Assembly (NCBI RefSeq): GCF_003611625.1
Contig: NZ_RAVY01000172.1
Coordinates: 1-20,729, forward strand
Direction of reading: 5' to 3'
From: Corallococcus sp. CA054B
GTDB taxonomy: Bacteria; Myxococcota; Myxococcia; Myxococcales; Myxococcaceae
DNA length: 20,729 nt
The position numbers were made by a program, and so were the translations under genes. Positions 4,249 through 4,473 of this stretch are shown here, piece after piece. The notes beneath the pieces are model-generated. The model worked only from the letters and a program-made list of their open reading frames with translations, ran no database searches and was not told the DNA's origin. Every line of letters begins with the position of its first letter. The first letter of the stretch is position 1.

Positions 4249-4473
4249 CTACATCGGGTTGGTGCAGCGCCAGACCCCGCATGAGCCCTCTCGGTCGCCA
4301 CAGTCATACTGGGTCGTGCAGGGCTTGCAGCTGGCCGAACAGATCATCCTGGCCGCCTCGGTGTCCGTCGTCTCCGCCTTCGAGCCGGGAACCATGGCCA
4401 GGGCCGTGCCGGCCATGATGCCGATGATCAGCGCGAATCCAGGAACCATCTGCTTCAGTCGCGATGCCTTCAT
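4249..4473 (-). CDS. Small secreted cysteine-rich peptide (74 aa precursor; ~41-aa mature peptide with 6 Cys)
   Basis: C-terminal portion of track ORF 4249..5118: MKASRLKQMVPGFALIIGIMAGTALAMVPGSKA / ETTDTEAARMICSASCKPCTTQYDCGDREGSCGVWRCTNPM. Strong SD GGAGGAAAC immediately upstream of the ATG (complement of 4474-4482). Same strand as the toxin gene, 70 bp upstream of it. Confidence 0.5.
   Translation of the reverse strand: MKASRLKQMVPGFALIIGIMAGTALAMVPGSKAETTDTEAARMICSASCKPCTTQYDCGDREGSCGVWRCTNPM

Follow-up and report, generated by a model that had tools for sequence, protein, structure and literature searches.

What is a small gene for a cysteine-rich protein doing immediately upstream of a presumed toxin gene? 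The question is raised by a locus of Corallococcus sp. CA054B, for which the analysed window is an entire contig of 20,729 bp (all coordinates refer to this window unless stated otherwise). The coding sequence of the small gene occupies positions 4249..4473 of the minus strand, stop codon included, and its translated product is a precursor of 74 amino acids, MKASRLKQMVPGFALIIGIMAGTALAMVPGSKAETTDTEAARMICSASCKPCTTQYDCGDREGSCGVWRCTNPM*. A gap of 70 nucleotides separates it from the ATG start codon (position 4178) of a lipoprotein gene on the same strand, which is the presumed toxin gene of a toxin-immunity cassette. An earlier inspection of this DNA (the sequence-only reading) described this arrangement correctly, and proposed that the small protein might be an accessory factor or chaperone for the toxin, a bacteriocin-like peptide or a signalling peptide. 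Comparative analysis shows that the small gene is genuine and conserved, that the cassette comes and goes beside it, and that the small gene does not belong to the toxin system. Its product is probably an exported binding peptide whose compact domain would be held together by disulfides.

At 69% GC, long chance open reading frames (ORFs) are common in this DNA. The small gene is itself the 3' portion of one such frame, a stop-to-stop ORF of 289 amino acids (4249..5118), and GC content at third codon positions (GC3) is just as high on the antisense strand's frame. A chance open frame with no protein product would be compatible with these features. However, about 31 homologous protein clusters share invariant cysteine and glycine residues with the predicted product. 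The ratio of nonsynonymous to synonymous substitution rates (dN/dS) is below 1 in all 21 pairwise comparisons of seven orthologs (range 0.22-0.70), and the insertions and deletions seen across orthologs are multiples of three nucleotides. The ATG (4473..4471) is preceded by the Shine-Dalgarno sequence GGAGG (4482..4478, minus strand) at a spacing of four nucleotides (AAAC). This sequence is retained in 10 of 11 aligned related loci, with AGAGG present instead at locus L004. Moreover, the frame of the small gene is the only one that is open in all 15 loci compared. Taken together, these observations exclude a spurious ORF for practical purposes. An antisense ORF at 4259..4657 was also considered as the true gene, and was rejected because it is closed in most homologous loci.

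The sequence-only reading was thus right to recognize a 74-codon gene within a long junk ORF, and right about the strong Shine-Dalgarno sequence before its ATG. Homologs of the small ORF also exist in relatives, including at syntenic Corallococcus loci. The gene had been described as unannotated, which proved incorrect: its protein is 100% identical to an NCBI hypothetical protein of Corallococcus sp. CA054B (locus tag D7V80_31285).

The two genes located downstream look like a toxin-immunity pair. The first (3249..4178, minus strand) codes for a lipobox lipoprotein, presumed to be the toxin, whose C-terminus matches DUF6310 (expectation value, E = 9e-57). A D...E-x-K pattern in this region (FDAL...LWEIK), read by eye, is suggestive of a PD-(D/E)xK nuclease-like domain. 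The second gene (2491..3252, minus strand) codes for a DUF5953 protein (E = 4e-113), presumed to provide immunity, and overlaps the DUF6310 gene by four nucleotides (ATGA), as is also the case at locus L014. A literature search on DUF6310 and DUF5953 found no paper.

The 70-nucleotide gap that separates the small gene's stop codon from the toxin ATG contains a hairpin resembling an intrinsic terminator, followed by TTTTCAATTG (4189..4224, minus strand; stem-loop 4224..4199). The stem has 11 base pairs, eight of them G-C, and carries a loop of four nucleotides. A terminator-like hairpin is kept 3' of the gene in nine orthologous loci, with compensatory changes at 3 of 13 pairs. In C. macrosporus (L015), the hairpin has the small gene on one side and a convergent gene on the other, and could be bidirectional in action.

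Comparison of related loci reveals several states of the cassette. An intact DUF6310/DUF5953 pair lies beside the small gene in the window and at L002 and L014. At L014 (Corallococcus sp.), the gene order is Major Vault Protein (MVP) - x - small gene - DUF6310 - DUF5953 - 229-amino-acid gene - RdgC - peptidase S13. The order at L015 is MVP - small gene - 229-amino-acid gene - RdgC - peptidase S13. Because these two loci share their flanks, the toxin-immunity pair can be recognized as an insertion or deletion located exactly after the hairpin of the small gene. Four C. exiguus genomes (L010-L013) carry MVP - x - small gene, after which QRPTase and ValRS genes come in convergent orientation; the cassette is absent. 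Only an orphan immunity gene is present in C. coralloides KYC2213 (L001), and the toxin of C. exercitus (L003) is internally deleted, missing residues ~207-271. The small gene and its hairpin are nevertheless retained at all of these loci, whether the toxin is lacking (L015, L010-L013 and L001) or deleted in part (L003).

More distant arrangements point in the same direction. In C. praedator (L004), the small gene lies between unrelated ORFs, and about 100 nucleotides of upstream sequence and the hairpin have moved along with it. Judged by eye, the upstream neighbour at this locus resembles an exo/endonuclease-phosphatase gene, and what lies downstream resembles a type VI-associated DUF2169/PAAR-like locus. 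Members at L005-L009 and L016-L018 have no neighbour in common with one another or with the window. A DUF6310 or DUF5953 neighbour is absent at L004-L009 and L016-L018, and no conserved neighbour of any kind was found across the 15 loci examined.

Base composition adds to this picture. The sequence-only reading noted a lowered GC content in common with the toxin gene, and the overall value for the small gene is indeed 0.64. This value stems from codon positions 1 and 2, and hence from amino acid composition. At third positions the resemblance does not hold, since GC3 is 0.85 in the small gene versus 0.73 in the toxin gene and 0.69 in the immunity gene, while the vault-protein gene has 0.92 and core genes have 0.92-0.95. 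The hairpin, the synteny without a toxin, a GC3 that is nearer to core genes than to the cassette, and a 70-nucleotide gap where the toxin and immunity genes overlap all establish that the small gene is independent of the toxin. An accessory or chaperone role modelled on sitB would draw on the shared strand and short distance, on the identical arrangement at L002 and L014, and on the lack of room after the hairpin for a promoter dedicated to the toxin gene, with read-through being possible. This proposal is largely refuted by the synteny and now appears highly improbable, given the persistence of the gene beside absent or decayed toxins, the unrelated contexts of other members, the conserved hairpin that separates the two genes and a GC3 unlike that of the cassette. 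The analogy itself also fits poorly: SitB is described as a beta-barrel predicted to reside in the outer membrane, and in M. xanthus its gene has an 11-bp overlap with sitA (PMC5562445).

If the small protein does not serve the toxin, its own family must provide the clues. A first homology search yielded 13 close homologs at 66-100% identity. A profile compared with 1.84 billion cluster representatives recovered seven clusters at 50% identity, and profile searches of a set of 5.8 billion proteins recovered about 31, defined at 90% identity and with lengths of 73-103 amino acids throughout. Named sources are Corallococcus, Pyxidicoccus and an unclassified Myxococcaceae genome, and genome scanning added members in Myxococcus sp. 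Y35 and in a record that bears the title 'Comamonas sp. KCTC 72670'. The member in the latter record (L006, BNCN01000002.1) has 58% identity and resides in high-GC DNA, whereas all other named sources are Myxococcaceae; the record may be mislabelled or contaminated. Judging from the named sources, the family appears to be restricted to the Myxococcaceae lineage.

At least two paralogs per genome are found in CA054B (P0001 and P0019) and in C. exercitus (P0020 and P0026). Divergent paralogs with 32-40% identity and longer linkers coexist with the ortholog, as exemplified by P0019 (D7V80_13315) in CA054B, P0026 in C. exercitus, and the member at 5001..5225 of L016/L017. One paralog is located 318 nucleotides upstream of a gene for a subtilisin-like S8 peptidase, which is a single anecdote in favour of a protease-inhibitor role.

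As the sequence-only reading recognized, the protein combines six cysteines with an N-terminus resembling a signal peptide. Residues 1-26 (4396..4473, minus strand) are predicted to form a Sec signal peptide, with an n-region rich in lysine and arginine, a hydrophobic h-region, and Ala-Leu-Ala at positions -3 to -1. The invariant pattern G12-x-A14-L15-x2-G18-x3-G22-x2-L25 follows the n-region, and its invariant residues persist even in paralogs with 30-40% overall identity. Residues 24-26 conform to [AST]-L-[ASG] in all 31 members, which is the classical (-3,-1) pattern for signal peptidase I, and a helix breaker at -5 is likewise typical of such sites. The h-region ahead of this site spans 13-14 residues, with Gly22 at -5. 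This family-wide motif points to cleavage after Ala26, which would leave a mature peptide of about 48 amino acids. The sequence-only reading had assumed a mature peptide of about 41 residues. Its recognition of a signal-peptide-like N-terminus stands, but a site after Ala33 would place proline at -1 in several homologs, and Ala26 is favoured. The UniRef name of one ortholog is 'Secreted protein'. A type IV pilin-like signal was also considered, as Gly12 followed by a hydrophobic residue is invariant, but there is no glutamate at +5 and no prepilin match in Pfam or NCBIfam.

The putative signal peptide is followed by a variable linker of acidic and polar residues (residues 27-43; 4345..4395, minus strand), which has a mean pairwise identity of 29% and differs in length across the family. 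Residues 44-70 (4264..4344, minus strand) form the six-cysteine domain, I-C-S-x-S-C-K-P-C-x5-C-G-x3-G-S-C-G-V-W-R-C. Exactly six cysteines are present in the mature region of all 31 members with a spacing of 3-2-(4-6)-6-4, and 26 of these share the 3-2-5-6-4 spacing of the window protein. The element G63-x-C65-x4-C70 is invariant across the family. Among the seven orthologs, the dN/dS of this domain is ~0.2, although dS is saturating. When the cysteines are left out, mean identity of the domain between subfamilies is 35%. In an AlphaFold2 run with a 13-sequence alignment, residues 41-70 reached predicted local distance difference test (pLDDT) scores of 84-88 and residues 1-38 stayed below 50, while a single-sequence run on the mature part was unusable (pLDDT 51).

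Database searches with the small protein returned no relatives that reveal its function. A sequence-profile search of the PDB gave chance matches only (best E = 0.19), and a fold search in PDB libraries with the predicted structure found no match. Pfam and NCBIfam likewise gave no match to the small protein at E <= 0.1, and Pfam searches with 29 members at E <= 10 produced scattered chance matches. A WhiB-like or radical-SAM-like iron-sulfur motif (C-x3-C-x2-C-x5-C) was considered and deemed unlikely because of the predicted periplasmic location.

The reading that we regard as moderately probable is that the gene stands alone, is probably monocistronic, and codes for a small binding peptide that is exported by Sec, cleaved by signal peptidase and stabilised by disulfides. 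In this model, the N-terminal signal peptide would target the precursor to the Sec translocon, and signal peptidase I would cut between residues 26 and 27 (A-L-A|M). Oxidation of the ~48-residue product in the periplasm would then convert the six invariant cysteines into three disulfides, so that ~27 residues form a compact and rigid domain tethered by a flexible acidic linker. The mature peptide would finally, most likely, bind a specific protein or envelope target, as an inhibitor or as a signal, rather than disrupt membranes. Specific binding is favoured by its neutral to anionic charge and by loops that vary on a fixed scaffold. We infer export, the cleavage site, the disulfides and the mode of action from sequence features of the family.

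Several observations weigh against this reading. Residues 11-30 are the best-conserved segment of the protein, with 64% mean pairwise identity compared to 57% for the cysteine domain. Constraint of this degree is atypical of an ordinary signal peptide, and the pattern would fit a membrane anchor that is retained. A profile of the N-terminal 43 residues retrieved only this family from the 5.8 billion proteins, so no other cargo carries this leader. In addition, function is constrained by neither homology nor a fold match in the databases searched. The monocistronic arrangement also has weak points, as the T-tract of the hairpin is short (TTTTC), the toxin ATG is located ~20 nucleotides past this tract, and no promoter-like site was detected there. 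Transcription of the cassette may therefore depend on read-through from the promoter of the small gene, which would yield a co-transcript, or alternatively on a promoter inside the small ORF. Co-transcription, if real, would be a consequence of where the cassette was placed and not evidence of shared function.

The main rival takes the N-terminal conservation at face value. It holds that the product is an uncleaved signal-anchor microprotein, with a single inner-membrane helix packed through small-xxx-small contacts (G-x5-G-x3-G) and a disulfide-rich periplasmic head through which it would modulate some membrane protein, for instance a sensor kinase or a transporter. The invariance of G12, A14, L15, G18, G22 and L25 and the family-specific profile would be expected of such a helix; the 19 residues between Pro11 and Pro29 could cross the bilayer, and a positive n-region with an acidic linker fits an N-in/C-out topology. 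Nevertheless, the hydrophobic stretch is closed in every member by the canonical signal peptidase I motif, with glycine at -5, and the h-region before it has merely 13-14 residues. No conserved partner gene was found nearby at the loci examined. Furthermore, among the seven orthologs, codons 1-30 have about half the dS of the cysteine-domain codons. This hints at nucleotide-level constraint on the 5' end of the ORF, which would account for part of the N-terminal conservation among orthologs. Considering these points, we view an anchored regulator as rather unlikely. We give slightly more, though still only tentative, credence to a bolder possibility, in which the protein is the founding member of a new, Myxococcaceae-restricted family with three disulfides and a new fold, whose N-terminal hydrophobic region has a function of its own (as a retained anchor or a recognition element), and which acts as a secreted or surface ligand or inhibitor in social or predatory behaviour.

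A different class of explanation is that the mature peptide is an antimicrobial or antagonistic agent, either a Sec-dependent bacteriocin or a defensin-like effector directed at prey or competitors. The signal peptide and six-cysteine mature part would suit this role, as would loops that vary on a fixed scaffold, dN/dS values of up to 0.7 in some ortholog pairs, and the presence of at least two paralogs in CA054B and C. exercitus. The invariant G-x-C-x4-C also matches the gamma-core pattern, which is common to disulfide-stabilised host-defence peptides. However, mature peptides of the family carry net charges of -7 to +1, and this lack of positive charge speaks against an antimicrobial peptide that disrupts membranes. 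No immunity, transporter or maturase gene is conserved next to the small gene in the 15 loci, which argues against a precursor of a ribosomally synthesized and post-translationally modified peptide (RiPP) or a classical bacteriocin; the latter is disfavoured on both counts. In addition, the CXC half of the CS-alpha-beta motif is lacking, no fold match was obtained from the PDB libraries searched, and a Sec signal alone reaches just the periplasm of a diderm cell. The same genus also encodes cis-defensins such as the corallosins (PMC11561630), but the motif strings of the small protein are missing from the catalogue of bacterial defensins, and a gamma-core is no guarantee of activity, as xanthusin-1 was inactive (PMC11561630). 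An antimicrobial role thus seems quite unlikely to us, and we continue to favour the exported binding peptide.

Several candidate control elements accompany the gene. The inferred 5' leader contains a GC-rich hairpin, GGGCCGGA-AGGC-TCCGGCCC (4496..4515, minus strand), which recurs in Corallococcus orthologs and is not found at L005 or L006. In minimum-free-energy folds of several orthologs, a GCCTCC stretch can pair with the Shine-Dalgarno sequence GGAGG. Further upstream is a conserved block, CTTGGAACGC...GTCTGTTCGAATGC (4527..4558, minus strand), with the promoter-like arrangement TTGGAA-N17-TCGAAT, which, like the leader hairpin, accompanies the gene into its different context at L004. We infer a possible promoter role for this block only from its sequence, as a sigma-70 consensus scan of 3900..4900 called no promoter, the block included. 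A sigma-54 promoter at TGGCAC was rejected, because this site is ~12 nucleotides from the ATG and the -12 element does not fit. An Rfam scan of 4100..4800 gave no match.

On its other side, the small gene is flanked by a divergent gene (4715..6991, plus strand) for an MVP homolog of 758 amino acids, which has Vault, Vault_2, Vault_3 and Vault_4 repeats and an MVP shoulder (best E = 3e-45). This homolog is ~98% identical across Corallococcus, and in at least 10 genomes of the genus its gene and the small gene are divergent neighbours. The intergenic span between the two is 241 bp in the window and up to ~1.1 kb elsewhere. At L010-L014, the interval holds extra called genes of 71-249 amino acids that have no Pfam match. 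A further gene in the window (7077..8051, plus strand) codes for a 324-amino-acid protein with an HmuY-like domain (E = 2e-12). Its N-terminal part, by eye, looks like a signal peptide or lipoprotein signal and is rich in cysteine and acidic residues.

The small proteins constitute a new family, whose member in the window is annotated just as hypothetical, within a known broad kind, the secreted disulfide-rich peptides of bacteria. If expressed as proposed, the family would offer a compact disulfide-rich scaffold of ~27 residues that is genetically simple, does without a maturase, and is unrelated in structure or sequence to any described family. The source organisms are predatory and social bacteria that are rich in bioactive molecules. 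Thus, the small protein could become a new engineering scaffold, or could prove to be a new inhibitor or signal. There is also a lesson for annotation: because toxin cassettes are gained and lost beside genes that stay in place, adjacency to a polymorphic toxin cassette is no evidence of function. For the DUF6310/DUF5953 system, the locus documents presence, absence and decay, with the pair intact at some loci, immunity left as an orphan gene at L001 and the toxin shortened by an internal deletion at L003.

How does the small protein compare with known systems? Its likeness to SitB, which we assessed by description, extends to a gene upstream of a lipoprotein toxin gene on the same strand and to an N-terminus like a type I signal sequence (PMC5562445). 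In contrast to SitB, it is a cysteine-rich protein of 74 amino acids with no beta-barrel, whose sole structured part is a domain of ~27 residues, and its gene is separated from the toxin gene by 70 nucleotides with a terminator-like hairpin and occurs without the toxin. RiPP precursors of the SCIFF/ranthipeptide type differ by their dependence on neighbours, since no adjacent maturase or exporter is conserved across the 15 loci, and the leader of the small protein is hydrophobic and Sec-like. With regard to Sec-dependent bacteriocins, no conserved adjacent small gene able to encode immunity was found across the loci examined.

Two further groups share the general architecture. Small bitopic membrane regulators such as MgrB have an N-terminal helix and a periplasmic tail with conserved cysteines. 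The small protein resembles them in its very small size, its N-terminal hydrophobic helix, its cysteine-bearing, predicted periplasmic tail and its stand-alone gene. Unlike these regulators, it has a signal peptidase I site, six cysteines instead of two and no linked sensor kinase, and no sequence relationship is evident. Knottins (inhibitor cystine knot peptides), whose disulfides link cysteines I-IV, II-V and III-VI, are alike in having ~30 residues, six cysteines, presumably three disulfides, and a rigid scaffold with variable loops. The 3-2-5-6-4 loops of the small protein fit the known knottin ranges only partly, with loop 2 (two residues) and loop 4 (six residues) falling outside, and there is no fold match.

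The nearest in kind are bacterial cis-defensins from Corallococcus and Myxococcus, which include the class I corallosins as well as xanthusin-1, of class II, and whose biological role is unclear even for the myxobacterial cis-defensin that has been solved (PMC11561630). There is no sequence similarity between the two groups, and the motif strings of the small protein are absent from the supplement of PMC11561630. The small-protein pattern C-x3-C-x2-C-x5-C-x6-C-x4-C lacks the downstream CXC that, together with CXXXC, defines the CS-alpha-beta motif; CXXXC is present in all 31 members, and CXC in none. The signal peptide is highly conserved in the small-protein family, whereas myxobacterial defensins can carry different signal peptides on identical mature peptides (PMC11561630). 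Most defensins bear a gamma-core signature, as mentioned in PMC11561630, and its pattern G-X-C-X3-9-C is satisfied by G63-x-C65-x4-C70 of the small protein, although so short a pattern is not diagnostic alone. Like the cis-defensins, the members of the small-protein family are small precursors with an N-terminal signal peptide and a six-cysteine mature peptide of roughly 30-50 residues, encoded by solitary genes.

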